From IMG/VR virus record IMGVR_UViG_3300029610_000052: a DNA stretch of 14,034 nt. One strand, given 5' to 3'. Positions 10,429-14,034 of the stretch are shown here, one piece after another. The DNA comes from a virus. The number at the start of each line of letters is the position of its first letter. The first letter of the stretch is position 1. The translations under genes were made by a program, and so were the position numbers. Below the pieces are notes generated by a model that was given only the letters and a program-made list of their open reading frames with translations, was not told the DNA's origin and did no database searches.

Positions 10429-10668
10429 TATGCGCGCCTCCCGTCCGCAGAAGGCGCGCCCGCCGCGCTCATCCCCTAAGCCCAGATGAGCAGCCACCTT
10501 GTCAGCGTCATGCTGAGGTGACACGAAGTGAAGGAGGCACACACGCTGCGGTCAACCGCATTCGGCGGATGGGGTACGCCCCACGCGCAGATTGTCGCAC
10601 CAACACCACCCGTGCAGTCAAGGTGAGAAAAAGTTTGCAATTTTCCTGAAAAAACTTCATTTTCCCTC

Positions 10669-10697
10669 TTGACATACTACAATTAGTATGTTATAAT
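10669..10697 (+). promoter_or_regulatory. Near-consensus sigma-70/SigA-type promoter with an extended -10.
   Basis: TTGACA (10669..10674), a 17-nt spacer, then TGtTATAAT (-10 at 10692..10697). An A/T-tract UP-like region lies upstream, with A5 at 10628..10632, T4 at 10641..10644, A6 at 10649..10654 and T4 at 10660..10663. Confidence 0.7.
10672..10691. promoter_or_regulatory. A 20-bp perfect palindrome (candidate operator) filling the promoter spacer.
   Basis: ACATACTA (10672..10679), caat, then TAGTATGT (10684..10691). The arms are exact reverse complements and lie between the -35 and -10. Confidence 0.5.
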
Positions 10698-10738
10698 ATA
10701 TGTGTCAGCAAGAGCTGACAGAAAGGCGGGTGTCAAAC

Positions 10739-10891
10739 ATGAATCAAAACGAAAGAGAGGAATCCCAAATGACCGATTACCAGTTCCGCTTCATCATGCG
10801 CGAATTGCTTGCTTACGCAAAGCAAGCTCCTGACAAGGAAACCATCGTCAAGCATCTGGAAGAACTTCTGAACGACAACAAAAAAGCCTAA
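10739..10891 (+). CDS. Small acidic helical protein of unknown function, 50 aa (or 40 aa if it starts at ATG 10769).
   Basis: This is tracked ORF 10700..10891. ATG 10700 abuts the -10 box and would lie upstream of the transcription start, so ATG 10739 or 10769 (GAGAGGA 7 nt upstream) is used. The sequence is MNQNEREESQMTDYQFRFIMRELLAYAKQAPDKETIVKHLEELLNDNKKA. Confidence 0.55.
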   Translation: MNQNEREESQMTDYQFRFIMRELLAYAKQAPDKETIVKHLEELLNDNKKA

Positions 10892-10957
10892 GCTCCGCAA
10901 CAGCTTAGGCTGACACACGGGGAAGCGGTAAGAGGATACCCGCCGCCGCTTCCCTCC
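10880..10957 (-). ncRNA. Predicted ~78-nt antisense small RNA with its own promoter, an internal hairpin and an intrinsic terminator.
   Basis: The promoter at 10992..10964 would start transcription near 10957. Hairpin GGGAAGCGG/CCGCTTCCC spans 10920..10954. The terminator has stem GCCTAAGCT/AGCTTAGGC (10886..10910, 7-nt loop) followed on the minus strand by TTTTTT (10885..10880). This is a prediction from sequence only. Confidence 0.4.
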
Positions 10958-10963
10958 TCCATC

Positions 10964-10992
10964 ATTCTACACGACGGCGGGTAAAAAGTCAA
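10964..10992 (-). promoter_or_regulatory. Minus-strand sigma-70-like promoter, TTGACT-17-TAGAAT.
   Basis: The reverse complement reads cccccTTGACTttttacccgccgtcgtgTAGAATgatggag, with -35 at 10992..10987 and -10 at 10969..10964. It shares the TTGACTTTTT start with the promoters at 11957 and 12314. Confidence 0.5.
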
Positions 10993-11006
10993 GGGGGATT
11001 TTGGAC

Positions 11007-11207
11007 ATGAGTGAACCGGAGAAGCAGAAGCGCAAGACACACACCTCGACCGACGTCAAACGGCGCTACAATGAGAAGGTATATGACCGCATCAGCCTGA
11101 GCGTGCCGAAGGAAATGGCAGCGGCATTCAAAGCCAAGTGCGCTGCCGAGGGTATCCCGCAGGCGCAGATTCTCAAACGCGCTATTGAAGCGTTTCTGGC
11201 GGAATAA
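11007..11207 (+). CDS. Ribbon-helix-helix (Arc/CopG-like) DNA-binding protein, 66 aa.
   Basis: ATG 11007 is preceded by AGGGGGA. The segment YDRISLSVPKEMAAAFKAKCAAEGIPQAQILKRAIEAFL has the beta-strand/helix/helix pattern of RHH regulators and antitoxins. Confidence 0.7.
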   Translation: MSEPEKQKRKTHTSTDVKRRYNEKVYDRISLSVPKEMAAAFKAKCAAEGIPQAQILKRAIEAFLAE

Positions 11208-11214
11208 CAGAAAG

Positions 11215-11248
11215 AGCGTGCTGTCCTCGAAAGGCGGCACGCTTTTTC
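11215..11248 (+). terminator. Rho-independent terminator after the RHH gene, convergent with the hepT 3' end.
   Basis: Stem AGCGTGC (11215..11221) pairs with GCACGCT (11237..11243), followed by a T-run at 11243..11247. Confidence 0.6.
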
Positions 11249-11604
11249 TATTCGTTTTCTTCGATTTCTGCAATGATTTTCCGAACATCCTGCACGAATC
11301 CCGGCATATCCTCGAACACGATTTCGACAATCATCGTCCAGTTGATGCCTTCGTACTCATGCACCAAACGATGGCGCATCCCGGAAACGGCATTCCACGG
11401 CTGTTCCGGGTACTTCGCTTTCAGTCCCCGCGTCAGCTGATACACCTGTTCGCCGATGTTGTACAGCGGCGTTGTCACTGCCCACTGCGCGAACTCATCC
11501 GTCATCAGCACTTCGCGTGTGATGTTCCGCTGCGCCATCTGCGCCGACAGGCTATCCCACGTCGTGACGATTTTCCGCAGGCGCTCCAAGTCCGTCTTTT
11601 TCAC
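11248..11604 (-). CDS. hepT: HEPN-domain toxin, DUF86/HepT family, 118 aa.
   Basis: It has the R-x4-H motif in GMRHRLVHEYEGI. The size, the 4-nt ATGA overlap with the upstream nucleotidyltransferase gene, and the gene order (MNT then HEPN) match type VII HepT/MntA modules. Confidence 0.85.
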   Translation of the reverse strand: MKKTDLERLRKIVTTWDSLSAQMAQRNITREVLMTDEFAQWAVTTPLYNIGEQVYQLTRGLKAKYPEQPWNAVSGMRHRLVHEYEGINWTMIVEIVFEDMPGFVQDVRKIIAEIEENE

Positions 11605-11891
11605 GCGATTCGCACCCCTTCCCGCATCACCGTCCGGTAAAAGTCGGATTCGCGGTTAATTTCGCGCAGCTCGAACGCATCAACATCCTTGTGCGTCAGC
11701 TGCCGCAGCTCCTCCCCGAAGGCAAAGACATCCCGTGCGCGGAAATGCGCCCCGCCGACCAGCACCACGTCAATATCCGAGTTCGCATTGGCGGATTCAC
11801 GCGCATACGACCCGAACAGAATCGCGTAATCCGCATGATATTTCCCCAGCAGACCGCGAATCGCCTGTTCTACTTCCCTGCGTGACAACAT
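11601..11891 (-). CDS. mntA: Minimal nucleotidyltransferase antitoxin (MNT/MntA family), 96 aa.
   Basis: This is tracked ORF 11601..12353, trimmed to ATG 11891, which is preceded by GGAGGTG. The motif LFGSYARESANANSDIDVVLV gives G-S-x-x-R ... D-I-D, the nucleotidyltransferase signature. Confidence 0.85.
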   Translation of the reverse strand: MLSRREVEQAIRGLLGKYHADYAILFGSYARESANANSDIDVVLVGGAHFRARDVFAFGEELRQLTHKDVDAFELREINRESDFYRTVMREGVRIA

Positions 11892-11928
11892 GCTACTGCA
11901 CCTCCGTTCTCTACGATTCCCTATCTGT

Positions 11929-11957
11929 ATCATACCATTCGCGAAAGAAAAAGTCAA
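11929..11957 (-). promoter_or_regulatory. Minus-strand promoter for mntA-hepT, TTGACT-17-TGgTATGAT.
   Basis: The reverse complement reads gTTGACTttttctttcgcgaatggTATGATacag, with -35 at 11957..11952 and -10 at 11934..11929. It lies ~38 nt upstream of the mntA start codon. Confidence 0.55.
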
Positions 11958-11976
11958 CAGAAGGGGTTGACTTTTT
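11948..11976. repeat. Perfect 11-bp inverted repeat, AAAAAGTCAAC-n7-GTTGACTTTTT, spanning both -35 boxes of a divergent promoter pair.
   Basis: The arms are 11948..11958 and 11966..11976, and they are exact reverse complements. Each arm contains a TTGACT -35 hexamer plus a T5 tract. Confidence 0.9.
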
Positions 11977-11995
11977 GCCGCGACATTTATATAAT
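11967..11995 (+). promoter_or_regulatory. Plus-strand promoter, TTGACT-17-TATAAT, for the CopG-like gene.
   Basis: TTGACT (11967..11972), 17-nt spacer ttttgccgcgacattta, then TATAAT (11990..11995). The gene start at 12027 is preceded by GAAAGAAGGTG. Confidence 0.6.
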
Positions 11996-12026
11996 ACAGT
12001 CGTGGACAGAGAAAGAAGGTGTTTAT

Positions 12027-12203
12027 ATGAGTCCACGAACGGGACGTCCGAAAGCTGTGAATCCGAAAAATCTCGAATTGCGCGTTCGCATCGACCGCGA
12101 AACATCCGAGATTCTCGAAGAGCTTGCCAAACATTACAACGAACCCAAGTCCGTTGTTGTCCGCAACGCCATCCAACAGCTTTACGCCAAAACGAAAAAA
12201 TAA
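12027..12203 (+). CDS. Ribbon-helix-helix (CopG-family) regulator, 58 aa.
   Basis: This is tracked ORF 11967..12203, trimmed to ATG 12027 because the TTG at 11967 is the -35 box. The sequence MSPRTGRPKAVNPKNLELRVRIDRETSEILEELAKHYNEPKSVVVRNAIQQLYAKTKK has an N-terminal GRPK tail, then the beta-strand (LRVRID) and two helices typical of CopG/RHH proteins. Confidence 0.7.
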   Translation: MSPRTGRPKAVNPKNLELRVRIDRETSEILEELAKHYNEPKSVVVRNAIQQLYAKTKK

Positions 12204-12280
12204 CGTGACTGCCCATCCGACCAAGACTAACAGCCACGTTATCCCGAAAGTCACAGCGTCCGAGGACGGTATGAAATCCT
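12192..12280 (-). ncRNA. Predicted ~88-nt antisense small RNA, the second copy of the promoter-plus-terminator arrangement.
   Basis: The promoter at 12314..12286 would start transcription near 12280. On the minus strand, AACGTGGCTG (12240..12231) pairs with CAGTCACGTT (12211..12202), 10 bp including one G-U, with a 19-nt loop. It is followed by ATTTTTTCGTTTT. The large loop makes the terminator weaker than the one at 10880..10910. Confidence 0.3.
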
Positions 12281-12285
12281 TTTTT

Positions 12286-12314
12286 ATCATACCATCCCGG
12301 ACGCAAAAAGTCAA
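12286..12314 (-). promoter_or_regulatory. Minus-strand promoter-like element, TTGACT-17-TGgTATGAT, a near-duplicate of the mntA promoter.
   Basis: The reverse complement reads cTTGACTttttgcgtccgggatggTATGATaaaaaagg, with -35 at 12314..12309 and -10 at 12291..12286. It shares TTGACTTTTT and ATGGTATGATA with 11957..11929. Confidence 0.45.
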
Positions 12315-12342
12315 GATTTTGCGAACATAGGAGGGTATTTTC

Positions 12343-12522
12343 ATGATGGACACAAAACAGATTCTTCAAGAAGTTGACCTGATTGGTGAAGCGCTGAATA
12401 TCATCTGCCAGCGCAGCAACTTCCAATCGAAAACCGACCGCATCGACGACGCTTTGCTTCTCGAAATCATCGAAAGCACCGGGCGGCTCAAAGAAATGCT
12501 GATTGCAGAGCAGGCAAGCTAA
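12343..12522 (+). CDS. Small acidic helical protein of unknown function, 59 aa. It is below the ORF-track length cut-off.
   Basis: Manual translation from ATG 12343, which is preceded by GGAGGG 8 nt upstream, gives MMDTKQILQEVDLIGEALNIICQRSNFQSKTDRIDDALLLEIIESTGRLKEMLIAEQAS, ending at TAA 12520..12522. A terminator follows. Confidence 0.6.
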   Translation: MMDTKQILQEVDLIGEALNIICQRSNFQSKTDRIDDALLLEIIESTGRLKEMLIAEQAS

Positions 12523-12527
12523 TCACC

Positions 12528-12556
12528 GGAGGGACGGAATGCCGCCCCTCTTTTTT
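12528..12556 (+). terminator. Rho-independent terminator between the convergent 59-aa gene and the tape measure gene.
   Basis: GAGGGACGG (12529..12537) pairs with CCGCCCCTC (12542..12550), 9 bp with 1 mismatch and loop AATG. It is followed by TTTTTT (12551..12556) and overlaps the TMP stop codon (12555..12557). Confidence 0.7.
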
Positions 12557-14034
12557 ATACCACCCCATACCCCGCCAGCTTCGCCCGGTTGAGCGCCGAC
12601 ACCTGTTCCGCAAACACTCTGGGTGTCGTCTGGCTCTGGAAGTTTGCGCTGCGGATGACCACGTTGGTGGAGAAGTCCGTATTGCCGCCCACATAGGTCG
12701 TTGACGGAAGAAGCCCGCTTCGCTGGATTAGCCCCGTGCCCGGCAGCGTCAGCGTCCCGCTGAAGCCGATGCCCGCCAGTGTGCTGTTGACCGCATCGCG
12801 GATTTCCGCGGCGGCCTGCTGCGTCATTCGCTTCGAGGACAGAATGCCCGCCGCCAGCGACACACCGACCGCCTTGCCTGTTTTCTCCTGGTTCGACAGG
12901 TCATCCAGCGTCTCCTGCACCGGCGCAACCGCATCCTGCGTCGTTTCCTGCAGCCCCTGCGAACTCTCTGTGATGCCGCTGCCGATGGCTTCCATTGCGT
13001 CCGAGCCAAGCGCATCGACCCCGTTGTCCGCGAAGAGCATCAGGCGCATGTAGTCCGCAAGAACGCCGGTGGCAGAGGATGCGTCGATGCTGTCCAGCGA
13101 GAATCCGTTTTCAAGCAGGGATGCCATAACGCCATTGATAGTGTCCATGCCTTCCTGTGCATCCTGTTCAAGCCACGATGCGTGCGCTTCGCGTATACCT
13201 TCGTTTAACGCTCTGTATGTGTTGCCGAGGTCAAATCCAGACATTTGCGAAGGGTCAGCCGCATATTTTCTCACCTGCTCCGGGTCATTCCACCAGTTCA
13301 ATCCATACTTTTCGCCGTAGGAGGCATAAGTGGTCAGCAGCTCCGGTGTCATATTGTCTCGCAGCCAATTTTCTGCGAAATTCATCGAGTCAGCCTGCAT
13401 AGCTGCCTGCATAGAGGACAGAAGTCGGATTTGCTCGCCGCCGGTCTGAATATACTGCCACGCTTCCGGGTTCTGTTTAGCCATTCCTTCCAGAATAGCC
13501 GCCACATCCGCCTGAAATTGCGCATTCACTTCATTCTCCGCTGTATTCAGTTCCGTCTGCCGTTCAGCCAGTGCCGCATCATACGCCGTCAGCTCCTCGT
13601 CACTTGCACCTGCTTCGCGTGCCGCAGCCTGACGTTCGTCTGAAATCGCTGTTTCTGCTTTTCTTTTCGCCTCAATTTCCGCCATCTTCTGCTGATAAAC
13701 GCCAATCGCGTATGCCGCCGCTGATGCGACAGCCTCCTCCGAGCCGTGCCCACTCGCCACAAGGTCGAAATACGACTTGTAGGTGGATGCCTCCAAGCTC
13801 TCCGTTTCGGCTTCCAACCCCATCATCTGGTTGCGCAACGCCATCACGCGATCCAGCGCCGCCTGAAGCGCGTTTAGTTCTTCATCCGTCGCAGAATTAC
13901 CTTTGCGGTACACCGTTTGAAGCAGCGCGTTATAATCCGCTACTGCGTTCTGCAACTGCGTAGCGACTTCCCGGACACCCACGTCGTCGCTGGTTGCGCC
14001 GTCATTTGCTTCTGCCATGATGCGCACACCGACC
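12555..14034 (-). CDS. Tail tape measure protein, C-terminal part. Unique sequence is 12555..13935, and 13936..14034 duplicates 1..99.
   Basis: The tracked ORF 12555..14027 begins with VRIMAEANDG..., which is in frame with and identical to the end of the minus-strand frame running from 2105 to 1. The sequence is helical and Ala/Glu/Gln-rich, typical of tape measure proteins. I see no obvious lysozyme or peptidase motif. Confidence 0.85.
   Translation of the reverse strand, partial: VGVRIMAEANDGATSDDVGVREVATQLQNAVADYNALLQTVYRKGNSATDEELNALQAALDRVMALRNQMMGLEAETESLEASTYKSYFDLVASGHGSEEAVASAAAYAIGVYQQKMAEIEAKRKAETAISDERQAAAREAGASDEELTAYDAALAERQTELNTAENEVNAQFQADVAAILEGMAKQNPEAWQYIQTGGEQIRLLSSMQAAMQADSMNFAENWLRDNMTPELLTTYASYGEKYGLNWWNDPEQVRKYAADPSQMSGFDLGNTYRALNEGIREAHASWLEQDAQEGMDTINGVMASLLENGFSLDSIDASSATGVLADYMRLMLFADNGVDALGSDAMEAIGSGITESSQGLQETTQDAVAPVQETLDDLSNQEKTGKAVGVSLAAGILSSKRMTQQAAAEIRDAVNSTLAGIGFSGTLTLPGTGLIQRSGLLPSTTYVGGNTDFSTNVVIRSANFQSQTTPRVFAEQVSALNRAKLAGYGVV
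13936..14034. repeat. Right copy of the 99-bp terminal direct repeat, identical to 1..99.
   Basis: It matches 1..99 exactly at an offset of 13,935. Confidence 0.95.

Follow-up and report, generated by a model that had tools for sequence, protein, structure and literature searches.

In the immI region of Salmonella phage P22 (Pant-arc-[sar]-ant, with mnt), an operon with a strong promoter begins with a ribbon-helix-helix (RHH) repressor gene and carries an antirepressor as its cargo, and a small convergent antisense RNA (sar, 68/69 nt) arises from between the repressor and cargo genes. The Arc operator lies between the -35 and -10 boxes of Pant, and immI is located inside or beside late structural genes. 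In coliphage 186, the facing promoters pR and pL are separated by ~62 bp that contain no terminator, and interference results from polymerase traversing the weaker promoter. Much of the 3′ end of cII is covered by phage lambda OOP RNA. The c4 RNA of P1/P7 derives from the sense transcript by processing and targets complementary sites in trans. Anti-CRISPR acr-aca operons combine a very strong promoter and an inverted-repeat operator with one or more small hypervariable first genes and a conserved DNA-binding autorepressor as the last gene. The countertranscript RNAII of pMV158 acts just 5′ of the translation signals of the distal gene (PMC4485353). OOP, a 77-nt antisense RNA, has a promoter and a terminator of its own and runs convergent to a regulatory gene, whose 3′ end it overlaps, and in P1/P7 immI (c4 RNA-icd-ant) the 77-nt c4 RNA holds down antirepressor synthesis (PMC12197685).

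Here we analyze two cassettes in the accessory region of a 14,034-nt DNA (the window) from a phage of gut bacteria, each with a plus-strand operon containing an RHH gene and a convergent minus-strand promoter and terminator. By their organization, the closest analogues of these cassettes appear to be P22 immI (Arc/sar/Ant) and pMV158 CopG/RNAII, not coliphage 186 pR/pL.

Results

A consensus scan of the entire window placed its five best sigma-70-type promoters all inside 10669-12314 (Table 1). They include the two face-to-face pairs that had been proposed from the sequence alone (the sequence-only reading), and every feature of that proposal lay where it had been placed; the spacing of 270-290 bp per pair required a small correction, as the predicted start-to-start distances are ~253 bp (pair 1) and ~277 bp (pair 2). 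It is very improbable that these are promoter-like sequences arising by chance, or without function, in an AT-richer accessory region. The GC content is indeed 48-55% there versus 56-63% in the rest of the window, and consensus scans do not evidence function. However, a re-scan at a threshold of 10/12 returned five matches within 10543-12554 and none in the remaining 12 kb, whereas shuffles preserving the dinucleotide content of this region gave a mean of 0.17 and a maximum of 3 in 300, and position, strand, and terminator pairing are kept across hundreds of divergent loci.

As had been noted, TTGACTTTTT opens all three minus-strand promoters and ATGGTATGATA is common to two of them; TTGACTTTTT also opens the plus-strand promoter at 11967. 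These motifs lose their standing as an element-specific signal, since the same 29-nt pattern (TTGACTTTTT...ATGGTATGAT) is present in >120 genome contigs, mostly from Clostridia, 5′ of tRNAs and ordinary genes. Judged by this distribution, it is a generic Clostridia promoter shape.

The sequence of the window corresponds to a circle of 13.9 kb, closed at a direct repeat that is part of a larger temperate prophage. Near-identical DNA occurs in phage contigs of 25-57 kb and in one integrated prophage; identity to contigs of 29-46 kb is 96-98% over the shared 11-12 kb and ~89% across the accessory region itself. The full prophage encodes an integrase, an HTH_3 protein, a primase, and a sigma-like regulator, and the earlier description of an element with no classical repressor therefore does not hold, although no CI-like gene lies within the window itself. 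In its strongest form, that description would make the cassettes a 186-type transcriptional-interference switch that replaces the classical repressor as the main developmental switch of the element. Strong face-to-face promoters, present twice, and the lack of a CI-like gene in the window would suit such a switch, but we find it hardly credible, and it appears already contradicted by the anatomy. Each antisense RNA is predicted to terminate ~200 bp before the sense promoter, leaving no interference there, whereas the 186 transcripts cross each other's promoters; the sigma-like regulator of the full prophage, which has HTH regulators and an integrase, is a late one; and the window is a repeat-bounded subgenomic circle. 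What survives of the proposed antisense or interference switch is antisense-RNA control of phage regulatory genes; the 186 analogy and the main-switch role do not. Rather than forming the main switch, the cassettes are accessory modules.

Both cassettes share the orientation of the integrase gene and oppose the lytic genes, all of which are on the minus strand, and they sit inside or beside late structural genes. The toxin-antitoxin pair MntA/HepT, confirmed by Pfam, belongs to neither cassette; hepT is mostly deleted in two related loci (L005, L006), and the MntA/HepT region is absent in a third (L001). The islands around the cassettes are rich in toxin-antitoxin pairs, among them MntA/HepT and DinJ/YafQ.

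Table 1. Positions of the cassette features and of the intervening toxin-antitoxin pair in the window
Feature	Position	Strand	Description
P1 promoter	10669-10697	+	12/12 consensus; TTGACA-17-TATAAT, TG-extended
P1 palindrome ACATACTAcaatTAGTATGT	10672-10691		Perfect; between -35 and -10 boxes; putative RHH1 operator
Stem-loop	10703..10720	+	7 bp, loop of 4; at predicted 5′ end of P1 transcript
orf50	10739..10891	+	Small hydrophilic helical ORF; variable slot of cassette 1
Antisense unit 1	10879..10992	-	Promoter, GC-rich 5′ hairpin, terminator hairpin, U6
Minus-strand terminator 1	10911-10885 + T6	-	Found by scan; stem includes orf50 stop codon (10889-10891)
Antisense promoter 1	10992-10964	-	10/12; -35 10992-10987, -10 10969-10964
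RHH1	11007..11207	+	CopG-type ribbon-helix-helix; conserved last gene of cassette 1; Pfam RHH_1, E 1.7e-7
Terminator ending cassette 1	11209..11249	+	Strong hairpin; found by scan
MntA/HepT pair	11248..11957	-	Between the cassettes; own promoter
mntA promoter	11957-11929	-	10/12; back to back with P2
P2 promoter	11967-11995	+	Cassette 2; 11/12; TTGACT-17-TATAAT
RHH2	12027..12203	+	Ribbon-helix-helix, widespread 'MSPRTGRPK..NPK' family; variable slot of cassette 2
Antisense unit 2	12193..12314	-	5′ hairpin, long terminator hairpin (12243-12200), U-run
Imperfect inverted repeat	12256..12304		16 bp in fold of 12240-12345; spans -10 box and start of antisense promoter 2
Antisense promoter 2	12314-12286	-	10/12; -35 12314-12309, -10 12291-12286, TG-extended
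orf59	12343..12522	+	Acidic two-helix hairpin protein; sole cargo of cassette 2 in this phage
Terminator ending cassette 2	12528..12557	+	Stem 12528-12551 with one mismatch, then U6

The layout proposed for cassette 1 and both of its terminators were recovered by the scan. The P1 palindrome occurs once in the window (0.10 expected), and the stem-loop that follows P1 is identical in all relatives compared; it may serve as a 5′ stabilizer or as a second operator. The true start of orf50 is probably the second ATG, at 10769, giving 40 aa; three of its only six close homologues are called at that length. Two highly divergent alleles of orf50 occur between identical flanks, and it has no match in the Pfam, PHROG, PADLOC, and NCBIfam profile libraries, none of the four being an anti-defense catalogue. 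In the post-tape-measure island of relatives and in many RHH1-family cassettes, the first gene encodes a peptide of 41-43 aa that has a basic N-terminus and contains a hydrophobic helix, and a convergent antisense promoter comes after this gene.

Antisense RNA 1 is predicted to be ~79 nt long (~10957 to 10879) and folds at -36.8 kcal/mol (z -3.2). In relatives its stems are invariant and its loop and linker variable, and the -10 box of its unit is TAGAAT or TAAAAT. RHH1 is a putative autorepressor of P1. A near-identical homologue (locus L027) has a precomputed match to PF10723 RepB-RCR_reg, and one of 70% identity (L185) immediately follows a P1-type promoter whose half-sites are the same. 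The terminator hairpin that ends the cassette folds at -27.2 kcal/mol on the plus strand and -23.0 kcal/mol on the minus strand, its complement standing just beyond the 3′ end of hepT.

Cassette 2 has the reverse gene order: in cassette 1 the variable small gene is first and the conserved repressor last. Both RHH assignments were upheld by Pfam; RHH2 matches RHH_1 (3.7e-4) and PHROG 876, 'transcriptional repressor' (2.3e-11), and has at least five alleles among close relatives. The repeat flanking the -10 box of P2 itself is weak (GCGACA / GTGGACA) and not significant as an operator repeat. The terminator scan, hindered by a mismatch and a long loop, missed the stem at 12528-12551 and the minus-strand hairpin and U-run at the RHH2 stop codon (12201-12203); each nonetheless folds as had been described. 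The first of these folds at -14.2 kcal/mol (z -2.5) and is kept in the post-tape-measure copies.

Antisense unit 2 lies wholly within the RHH2-orf59 spacer, and the final Lys codons of RHH2 supply its U-run. Its predicted RNA is ~87 nt long (~12279 to 12193) and folds at -37.4 kcal/mol (z -5.8) on the minus strand versus -18.3 kcal/mol (z -1.9) on the plus strand. Across 11 variants of its 12-bp core, the minus strand makes 123 Watson-Crick pairs and 8 G.U pairs with 1 mismatch, and the plus strand makes 123 Watson-Crick pairs and 1 G.U pair with 8 mismatches. The 'b' allele of cassette 2 has an entirely different stem at the same position. In the close lineage the antisense-promoter segment is nearly invariant, and covariation for its 5′ part comes from distant members only.

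The inverted repeat that spans antisense promoter 2 is transcribed whole in the sense mRNA only. Of 30 distinct family members, 60% have a similar repeat that reaches significance. In the modeled fold, the mean unpaired probability of the orf59 Shine-Dalgarno sequence and AUG is 0.43 when free and 0.27 when the antisense target is blocked. These values suggest a structural switch that would control the orf59 translation signals, the modeled effect being modest. Direct occlusion of the orf59 ribosome-binding site in the manner of sar is excluded because antisense RNA 2 ends ~50 nt upstream of it. The orf59 product belongs to an orphan family; its AlphaFold2 model has two helices (mean pLDDT 86), and the predicted structure gave no significant fold match. 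A 49%-identical homologue (locus L230) directly precedes a Bro-N antirepressor gene, a gene that is absent from cassette 2 of the window.

Relatives of RHH2 occur in at least 480 viral contigs. Among distinct loci, a minus-strand terminator is found at the stop codon in 46/49 (background 3.7%; 33 different stem sequences), a minus-strand promoter ~90-120 nt downstream in 36/48 (a plus-strand one in 8/48), and a plus-strand promoter upstream in 44/48. All 44 distinct upstream promoters begin with TTGACT, and in 57% a significant direct repeat, a putative operator, flanks the -10 box. The larger downstream ORF contains a Rha, Bro-N, ORF6N, or AntA domain in 36 of 48 cases. RHH2 homologues are annotated as repressors beside antirepressors in Clostridium phage phiCD211 and Streptococcus phage Javan452, both with the same layout. 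The antisense RNAs of this family have one common architecture, many with a loop motif close, by eye, to CUUUGGUAGG. In the RHH1 family, the promoter carries the palindrome ACATACT-N6-AGTATG in 56/59 loci, with the half-sites kept and the central 6 nt variable, and 19 of 26 distinct cassette types have an internal antisense promoter in the corresponding position (a plus-strand one in 1). In either family the loci are related to one another, and the counts therefore overstate independent events. The pattern is mosaic, with exchange of the first gene in each cassette between nearly identical regulatory parts. The alignment of homologues that the sequence-only reading had proposed shows promoters conserved in relatives and terminator-stem changes that preserve pairing.

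The minus-strand terminators might instead be insulators that block early or late lytic read-through across the islands, the short RNAs being by-products, and the minus-strand promoters might restart or boost lytic transcription into operons such as mntA-hepT or HNH-terminase. The antisense units do lie in the path of lytic transcription, and a promoter-terminator unit on the HNH strand, ~340 bp upstream of that gene, recalls lambda PR′-6S-tR′. But the strong terminator right after each antisense promoter would leave downstream genes unserved without antitermination, and mntA has its own promoter. Moreover, the antisense unit accompanies the RHH genes into phages and positions that differ widely, yet it abuts the RHH stop codon in every case; it is therefore tied to the cassette rather than to the surrounding operon. 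We regard insulation as improbable.

Discussion

The sequence features exceed chance expectation and are conserved, with covariation, across families; we infer from them that the antisense RNAs are made, what they target, and that the RHH proteins repress their own promoters. On balance we favor, with some reserve, a reading of both cassettes as self-contained accessory operons of a temperate Clostridia-type prophage, each with two levels of control. At the level of transcription, the operon-encoded RHH protein would repress its own strong promoter, RHH1 at the palindrome within P1 and RHH2-type proteins at direct repeats flanking the -10 box. At the second level, a short cis-antisense RNA would start at the strong promoter in the intergenic spacer, end at the terminator abutting the upstream stop codon, and pair with the spacer of the bicistronic mRNA, so that less of the distal gene is expressed (orf59 in cassette 2 and RHH1 in cassette 1). 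RNA polymerase collisions over the 80-90 bp overlap might add to this limitation, and sense transcription passing over the antisense promoter would, conversely, reduce antisense RNA production.

P22 immI and pMV158 copG-rnaII-repB follow the same logic. The cassettes resemble immI in genomic location, in the placement of the P1 palindrome relative to that of the Arc operator, and, among most relatives of cassette 2, in the antirepressor type of cargo. They differ in that no sequence relationship was detected beyond the RHH fold (PHROG 'Arc-like', E ~1e-3), the host is a Gram-positive-type bacterium, antisense RNA 2 falls short of the orf59 ribosome-binding site, and cassette 2 here carries a 59-aa orphan with neither an antirepressor nor a Mnt counterpart. 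In pMV158 copy-number control (Pcr-copG-[rnaII]-repB), a CopG-family RHH gene leads the operon and the countertranscript, with a 5′ tail, terminator hairpin, and U-tail, lies wholly in the spacer beside the RHH stop codon, a geometry nearly identical to that of antisense unit 2; the RepB-RCR_reg match of the RHH1 homologue is a further likeness. RNAII is, however, 48 nt long with one hairpin, whereas the RNA predicted here has two; the cassettes carry no replication initiator as cargo and reside in a prophage rather than a plasmid, and the Rfam ctRNA families have no match in the window.

The lambda OOP/cII analogy drawn earlier is structurally fair, if less close than sar and RNAII: here, too, a short antisense RNA with its own promoter and terminator would meet the 3′ end of the upstream gene. 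Firmicutes type I toxin-antitoxin loci (txpA/RatA, bsrG/SR4, and those of Clostridioides difficile prophage) likewise have convergent promoters and an antisense RNA that meets the 3′ end of a small ORF. On either model the antisense RNA would act on the upstream gene (orf50 or RHH2), pairing at the mRNA 3′ end so that RNase III cleaves the transcript and it decays. Terminator stems and U-runs do extend over the stop codon and final codons of that gene, the membrane-type first-slot peptides of cassette 1 relatives, with the convergent antisense promoter behind them, resemble a type I toxin-antitoxin, and the neighboring islands abound in toxin-antitoxin pairs. We nevertheless consider action on the upstream gene unlikely. 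The overlap is only ~10-15 nt and the RNA mostly intergenic; orf50 and RHH2 are hydrophilic and not toxin-like, and orf59 is hydrophilic as well; a putative RHH autorepressor belongs to the unit, unlike in type I loci or lambda; and in the RHH2 family the upstream gene is the repressor and the conserved cargo lies downstream.

The remaining systems are more partial analogues. Coliphage 186 offers face-to-face promoters in a phage regulatory region, but the predicted starts here are 250-280 bp apart and the antisense RNA ends long before the sense promoter. P1/P7 immI likewise uses a small RNA to control an antirepressor in an accessory immunity region, but has neither an RHH protein nor a convergent promoter. 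The acr-aca operons parallel cassette 1 only, with its operator-bearing promoter, variable first gene, and conserved last RHH gene; the parallel is limited by orf50 matching no family in the profile libraries searched, and, to our knowledge, no RHH-type Aca operon contains an internal antisense promoter.

Under the favored reading of two-level control, the controlled cargo would be an antirepressor-type gene in most relatives of cassette 2, and in this phage only the small orf59 occupies that position. A link of cassette 2 to lysis-lysogeny control is plausible because its relatives mostly carry antirepressor genes. The cassette design recurs in many Firmicute phages, usually in front of an antirepressor gene.

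Two convergent-promoter cassettes in the accessory region

In a consensus scan of the entire window, the five highest-scoring sigma-70-type promoters fell at the positions from which the sequence-only reading had drawn two convergent-promoter cassettes and a separate mntA promoter. Re-scanning with the same rule gave five matches of at least 10/12 in 10543–12554 and none in the other 12 kb; 300 dinucleotide shuffles of 10543–12554 yielded a mean of 0.17 matches and a maximum of 3. The terminators were recovered either by scanning or by folding. Antisense RNA 2 folds at −37.4 kcal/mol (z −5.8) when read on the minus strand, versus −18.3 kcal/mol (z −1.9) on the plus strand, and Pfam supports RHH1, RHH2 and the MntA/HepT pair that lies between the cassettes. 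Scanning, folding and Pfam thus confirm the cassette anatomy. From this anatomy, two discrete minus-strand RNAs are predicted, one of ~79 nt (~10957–10879) and one of ~87 nt (~12279–12193).

Promoters, terminators, islands and cassettes. Positions are those of the window unless another contig, locus or scaffold is named.
Feature	Position	Strand	Description	Source
Sense promoter P1	10669	+	12/12	Consensus scan
Sense promoter P2	11967	+	11/12	Consensus scan
Antisense-1 promoter	10992	−	10/12	Consensus scan
mntA promoter	11957	−	10/12	Consensus scan
Antisense-2 promoter	12314	−	10/12	Consensus scan
Antisense-1 terminator	10911–10885	−	Followed by T6	Scan
Cassette 1 terminator	11209–11249	+		Scan
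Cassette 2 terminator	12528–12551	+	Overlooked by simple rule	Folds as first described
Antisense-2 hairpin and U-run at RHH2 stop codon	12243–12200	−	Long; overlooked by simple rule	Folds as first described
Island 1	Upstream of HNH			29-kb contig
Island 2	Between tape-measure gene and distal tail genes			29-kb contig
Genes of integrated copy			Integrase, small HTH_3 protein, 952-aa protein, sigma-70 region-4 protein, SSB, then island 1	354-kb scaffold
Third cassette	12103–12685		12/12 promoter with different palindrome, 41-aa peptide, GC hairpin, facing antisense promoter (11/12), 27-aa hydrophobic peptide, 66-aa ORF, terminator; DinJ/YafQ pair next	29-kb relative L007
phiCD211 cassette	24695–26067		Repressor, anti-repressor, then tape measure	Locus L309
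Javan452 cassette	22223–23515		Between portal-side and capsid genes	Locus L310

The motifs shared by the minus-strand promoters had been read as belonging to the element, a view that did not survive a wider search. In a scan of species-representative genomes, TTGACTTTTT-N9-ATGGTATGAT occurred in more than 120 contigs among the matches listed, mostly from Oscillospiraceae, Ruminococcus, Lachnospiraceae and other Clostridia, and was located upstream of tRNAs and ordinary genes. On the basis of this genome-wide scan, TTGACTTTTT/ATGGTATGATA was rejected as an element-specific operator; TTGACTTTTT-N9-ATGGTATGAT has the shape of a strong host promoter. The mntA promoter and P2 stand back to back (11948–11976), and their −35 boxes, 9 bp apart, form the inverted repeat AAAAAGTCAA-N9-TTGACTTTTT. 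The back-to-back design also links successive RHH units in the tandem-cassette relatives L005, L027 and L225.

The small ORFs that accompany the RHH genes have few relatives. orf50 is an orphan. orf59 is confidently modeled as a two-helix hairpin (pLDDT 86), for which a fold search returned only generic helical hairpins, with Rop at rank 7–8 and an E of ~1 that is not meaningful; exhaustive sequence searches returned only near-identical proteins and one relative of 51% identity. PADLOC and NCBIfam contributed nothing further for orf50, orf59 or the RHH proteins.

The window as a segment of a larger phage

Nucleotides 1–99 of the window are identical to 13936–14034, so the window is a circle with a unit of 13,935 bp. 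This repeat lies inside the tape-measure gene, which crosses the circle junction. The other minus-strand genes encode an HNH endonuclease, the small and large terminases, portal, a ClpP-type protease, major capsid, connectors, major tail and a chaperone, and the sole nonstructural part is 10543–12554. The large terminase recurs at 100% identity in IMG/VR contigs of 20 to 46 kb. DNA identity between the window and contigs of 29 to 46 kb is 96 to 98% across the 11 to 12 kb in common and ~89% in the accessory region, which a 29-kb contig divides between two islands. Each island carries, in direct orientation, one copy of a module comprising the antisense-2 promoter and orf59 (7241 and 21149 in the 29-kb contig L002). 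The two copies are ~13.9 kb apart, the unit length of the window, and several contigs break within or beside orf59. Together, the copy spacing and the breaks indicate that the circle is the segment between two direct repeats. The junction from the tape-measure end through orf59 to HNH is also present in three other samples; closure of the circle is either a genuine recombination product (circle or tandem duplication) or an assembler cycle.

The remaining phage genes are visible in an integrated copy, carried by a 354-kb scaffold. Its 952-aa protein has, in a 29-kb viral contig, sub-threshold Pfam matches to Toprim and an AAA domain. The cassette genes are co-oriented with the integrase and opposed to all lytic genes. 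That the element has no classical repressor, as was originally stated, is true of the fragment and not of the phage, whose integrated copy has an integrase and an HTH_3 protein. Short circular viral contigs can be repeat-bounded fragments of larger prophages, a lesson for their annotation.

Several further features of the islands were observed. A 100-aa metagenomic protein (P0009) is a chimera in which a YafQ toxin N-terminus joins an orf59 C-terminus at the common residues YRI(E)DD, which suggests recombination between island genes. In the relatives L005 and L006, hepT has an internal loss of ~270 bp (relative to window 11326–11596) with mntA and its promoter intact; window 11208–11989 has no aligned counterpart in L001, another relative. 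The 100 bp upstream of HNH (10543–10645) are 100% identical in six of six relatives, though the neighboring accessory genes vary, and are a candidate cos site and/or late promoter; a good sigma-70 promoter was looked for in 10543–10645 and none is present. A DNA search with the accessory region matched a single record, an unannotated fecal phage, over the RHH1 3′ end, hepT and the mntA 3′ end.

Cassette 1 and the RHH1 family

Close relatives differ hardly at all in P1 and its leader, in the antisense terminator and promoter, in the spacer or in RHH1; for orf50, two highly divergent alleles exist. The antisense-1 −10 box reads TAGAAT or TAAAAT, and changes in the antisense-1 terminator are confined to its loop. 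RHH1 homologues of 43 to 98% identity were found in 62 viral loci. The window carries the promoter TTGACATACT-N6-AGTATG at 10669–10691, followed downstream by the CopG-like RHH gene with which the operon ends, and a promoter of this form lies within 1 kb upstream of the RHH1 homologue in 56 of 59 loci analyzed; the RHH1-type operator cassette is a class defined in this analysis. Across the family, the half-sites of the promoter palindrome are constant and its central six bases variable, and in one locus the palindrome-bearing promoter directly precedes the RHH gene. These two features provide good indirect evidence for the P1 palindrome as the putative RHH1 operator.

Between the palindrome promoter and the RHH gene, 19 of 26 distinct cassette types contain a minus-strand promoter of at least 10/12; a plus-strand promoter occurs in one of the 26 (the intervals sum to 11.2 kb). 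The antisense promoters include at least eight with no sequence relationship to one another. The gene that precedes the antisense promoter varies as well and encodes either a peptide of 41 to 43 aa that combines a basic N-terminus with a hydrophobic helix, or else a small helical protein. We ranked low a reading of promoter 10992 and its terminator as a lambda PR′-type late promoter, as the unit travels with the cassette. Hydrophobic peptides are the hallmark on which a type I toxin–antitoxin reading would turn; they occur only in related cassettes, some of which that reading fits, whereas orf50, RHH2 and orf59 are hydrophilic, so it misfits the window.

The 29-kb relative L007 has a third convergent-promoter cassette, in the island after the tape measure. 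Its 41-aa peptide has a basic N-terminus and a hydrophobic helix, and by its sequence the cassette looks like type I toxin–antitoxin loci and RHH1-family cassettes such as that of locus L175.

Cassette 2 and the RHH2 family

P2 (11/12) lies 32 nt upstream of the RHH2 gene (12027–12203, an RHH_1 match), and here the mosaic is the reverse of that in cassette 1. At least five alleles of RHH2 and the P2 spacer occur among close relatives. Near-invariant, in turn, are the antisense promoter, the 5′-terminal 30 nt of its RNA, the orf59 leader and, in most cases, orf59; this invariance extends to the relative with only 51% identity in orf59. The 12-bp core of the antisense terminator occurs in 11 distinct variants, representing approximately five independent events. 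A manual count of the minus-strand reading gives 123 Watson–Crick pairs, 8 G·U and 1 mismatch; the plus-strand reading gives 123 Watson–Crick, 1 G·U and 8 mismatches. Changes in the stem preserve pairing, with the minus strand favored, and these few events are consistent with the orientation of the U-run and promoter. One allele has a wholly different stem, TAGAAGATGCG/CGCATCTTCTA, at the same position and followed by the same U-run.

The arrangement extends far beyond close relatives. RHH2-family proteins (N-terminus MSPRTGRPK..NPK) are encoded in at least 480 viral contigs. A plus-strand promoter lies within 120 nt upstream in 44 of 48 distinct loci. Using detection anchored on the stop codon, with a threshold of −12 kcal/mol or lower and a background control, we found a minus-strand intrinsic terminator abutting the RHH stop codon in 46 of 49 distinct loci, compared with 3.7% of random windows from the same loci; a plus-strand terminator was found there in only 5 of 49. 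These terminators have 33 different 3′ arm sequences. In 36 of 48 loci a minus-strand promoter lies ~90 to 120 nt beyond the stop codon; on the plus strand, 8 of 48 have one. The predicted RNAs share a plan of small 5′ hairpin, linker and terminator hairpin, the loop of the latter being often, by eye, near CUUUGGUAGG. Arms that fell out of register kept RNAalifold from finding a consensus across 24 divergent antisense RNAs aligned with MAFFT. Further MAFFT alignments displaced the 5′ arm by a single column from one stem type to another and gave no basis for a covariance model.

Every RHH2-family sense promoter begins with TTGACT. A significant direct repeat, whose two copies follow the −35 and −10 boxes, respectively, is present in 57% of them and differs between cassettes, as RHH operators would; in P2 of the window it is weak and not significant. 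A second repeat, inverted, spans the antisense promoter (12256–12304 in the window); through it, the initial ~35 nt of the antisense RNA are complementary to the promoter segment from −35 to −10. Comparable repeats are significant in 60% of 30 distinct loci, with sequences that differ between loci. Such a repeat may equally act as DNA, as an operator at the antisense promoter, or fold into a hairpin in the sense mRNA.

Of 48 larger downstream ORFs, 36 carry Rha, Bro-N, ORF6N or AntA domains, and ANT/KilAC is present as well in five; in one relative, an orf59 homologue (49% identity) immediately precedes a Bro-N gene. The spacer hairpin with its T-rich tail is recognizable on the minus strand in Clostridium phage phiCD211 and Streptococcus phage Javan452. 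The scan supports an antisense promoter in Javan452 only (11/12); no promoter of 9/12 or better was found in the phiCD211 spacer, where reading by eye reveals only an extended −10-like box and a weak −35-like box.

Comparison with known antisense circuits

Antisense control of phage regulatory cassettes has precedents in sar, OOP and c4 (PMC12197685), and this part of the sequence-only reading fits the data; its coliphage 186 pR/pL analogy, the meaning it gave to the shared motifs and its view of the element were wrong. Unlike the 186 arrangement, the antisense transcripts are predicted to end at strong minus-strand terminators (10911–10885 and 12243–12200) ~200 bp short of P1 and P2, rather than crossing them. 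For the OOP/cII comparison, the relevant overlap with the convergent gene lies at its 3′ end and is limited to the stop codon and approximately three to four codons.

P22 immI offers a closer parallel. Cassette 2 likewise places a putative RHH repressor gene first behind a strong promoter, with a convergent antisense RNA gene, here predicted from sequence, between repressor and cargo. Antirepressor-type domains in the relatives extend the likeness, and the phiCD211 and Javan452 cassettes lie within the structural gene region, recalling the position of immI. In contrast, the window cargo is a 59-aa orphan helical hairpin and not an antirepressor, and the predicted antisense RNA (12279–12193) misses the orf59 Shine–Dalgarno sequence (12331–12337), whereas that of P22 pairs with the cargo ribosome-binding site. 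Cassette 2 closely resembles pMV158, whose RNAII, a 5′ tail plus terminator, lies wholly in the copG–repB spacer, has a target beginning beside the copG stop codon, and exerts its effect a short distance before the repB initiation signals (PMC4485353). The predicted cassette 2 countertranscript is laid out alike: it stays within the spacer, adjoins the RHH stop codon, and has a 5′ tail ahead of an intrinsic terminator. The distal genes differ: that of pMV158 encodes the replication initiator Rep, and orf59 has neither a Rep domain nor any Pfam match.

Only noise came back from Rfam, whether the window was searched with an E cutoff of 1 or the region with a cutoff of 10, and no ctRNA matched at the antisense RNAs. 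In a local search, the antisense RNA of a distantly related RHH2-family locus (L286, 241–331, minus strand) matched the full ctRNA_pT181 model (RF00242) at 39.7 bits, below the threshold of 56, with an E of 5e-4. Within the common part is the loop motif CUUUGGU.GG, also present in many RHH2-family members and phiCD211 and, more loosely, in Javan452; the corresponding window loop is 12205–12240. Twenty further relatives gave no ctRNA match at E up to 1, and we do not claim homology to ctRNA_pT181.

The cassettes are a variant of a known circuit type, and the wider RNA family is the most promising thread. We tentatively suggest that the RHH–countertranscript pair represents an undescribed antisense RNA family, widespread among Firmicute phages and with members in phiCD211 and Streptococcus Javan prophages, that gates antirepressor operons and would be a Gram-positive counterpart of P22 immI; the same geometry, the similar loop motif and the one sub-threshold ctRNA_pT181 match are the grounds on which it may share ancestry with plasmid CopG/ctRNA systems. 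As part of this tentative reading, the duplicated module copies would be recombination sites able to loop out the 13.9-kb circle of head and tail genes. The literature searched, which is incomplete, yielded no description of an RHH–antisense–antirepressor module in Gram-positive phages.

A proposed mechanism of dual control

The most likely mode of action is two-level control of the kind known from P22 immI and pMV158. The RHH protein would silence the strong promoter of its own operon, and the countertranscript would pair with the intercistronic spacer of residual sense mRNA, limiting the distal gene; polymerase collisions in the 80 to 90 bp overlap could add to this limitation. When the operon fires, sense transcription would occlude the antisense promoter. 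The cassette 2 sense mRNA may in addition form a 16-bp hairpin (12256–12304) whose left arm would be the target of the antisense RNA 5′ end. With the left arm blocked, the freed right arm, AUACCAUCC, could pair with the orf59 Shine–Dalgarno sequence, GGAGGGUAU. In one model, blocking the left arm lowered the unpaired probability of the orf59 Shine–Dalgarno sequence and AUG from 0.43 to 0.27, consistent with the spacer as a possible structural switch.

Implications

The analysis confirms the original observation, with far stronger support than the sequence-only reading could reveal. Very strong promoters that appear to be orphans in phage accessory islands can flag small antisense RNA genes. 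If the antisense RNAs are real, a compact two-layer circuit of RHH repressor and countertranscript, its RNA absent from Rfam, would be common to hundreds of Firmicute phages, including those of Clostridioides difficile and Streptococcus pyogenes. It would mostly precede antirepressor genes, set the timing of prophage escape from repression, and tie the second immunity regions of phages to plasmid copy-control circuits.
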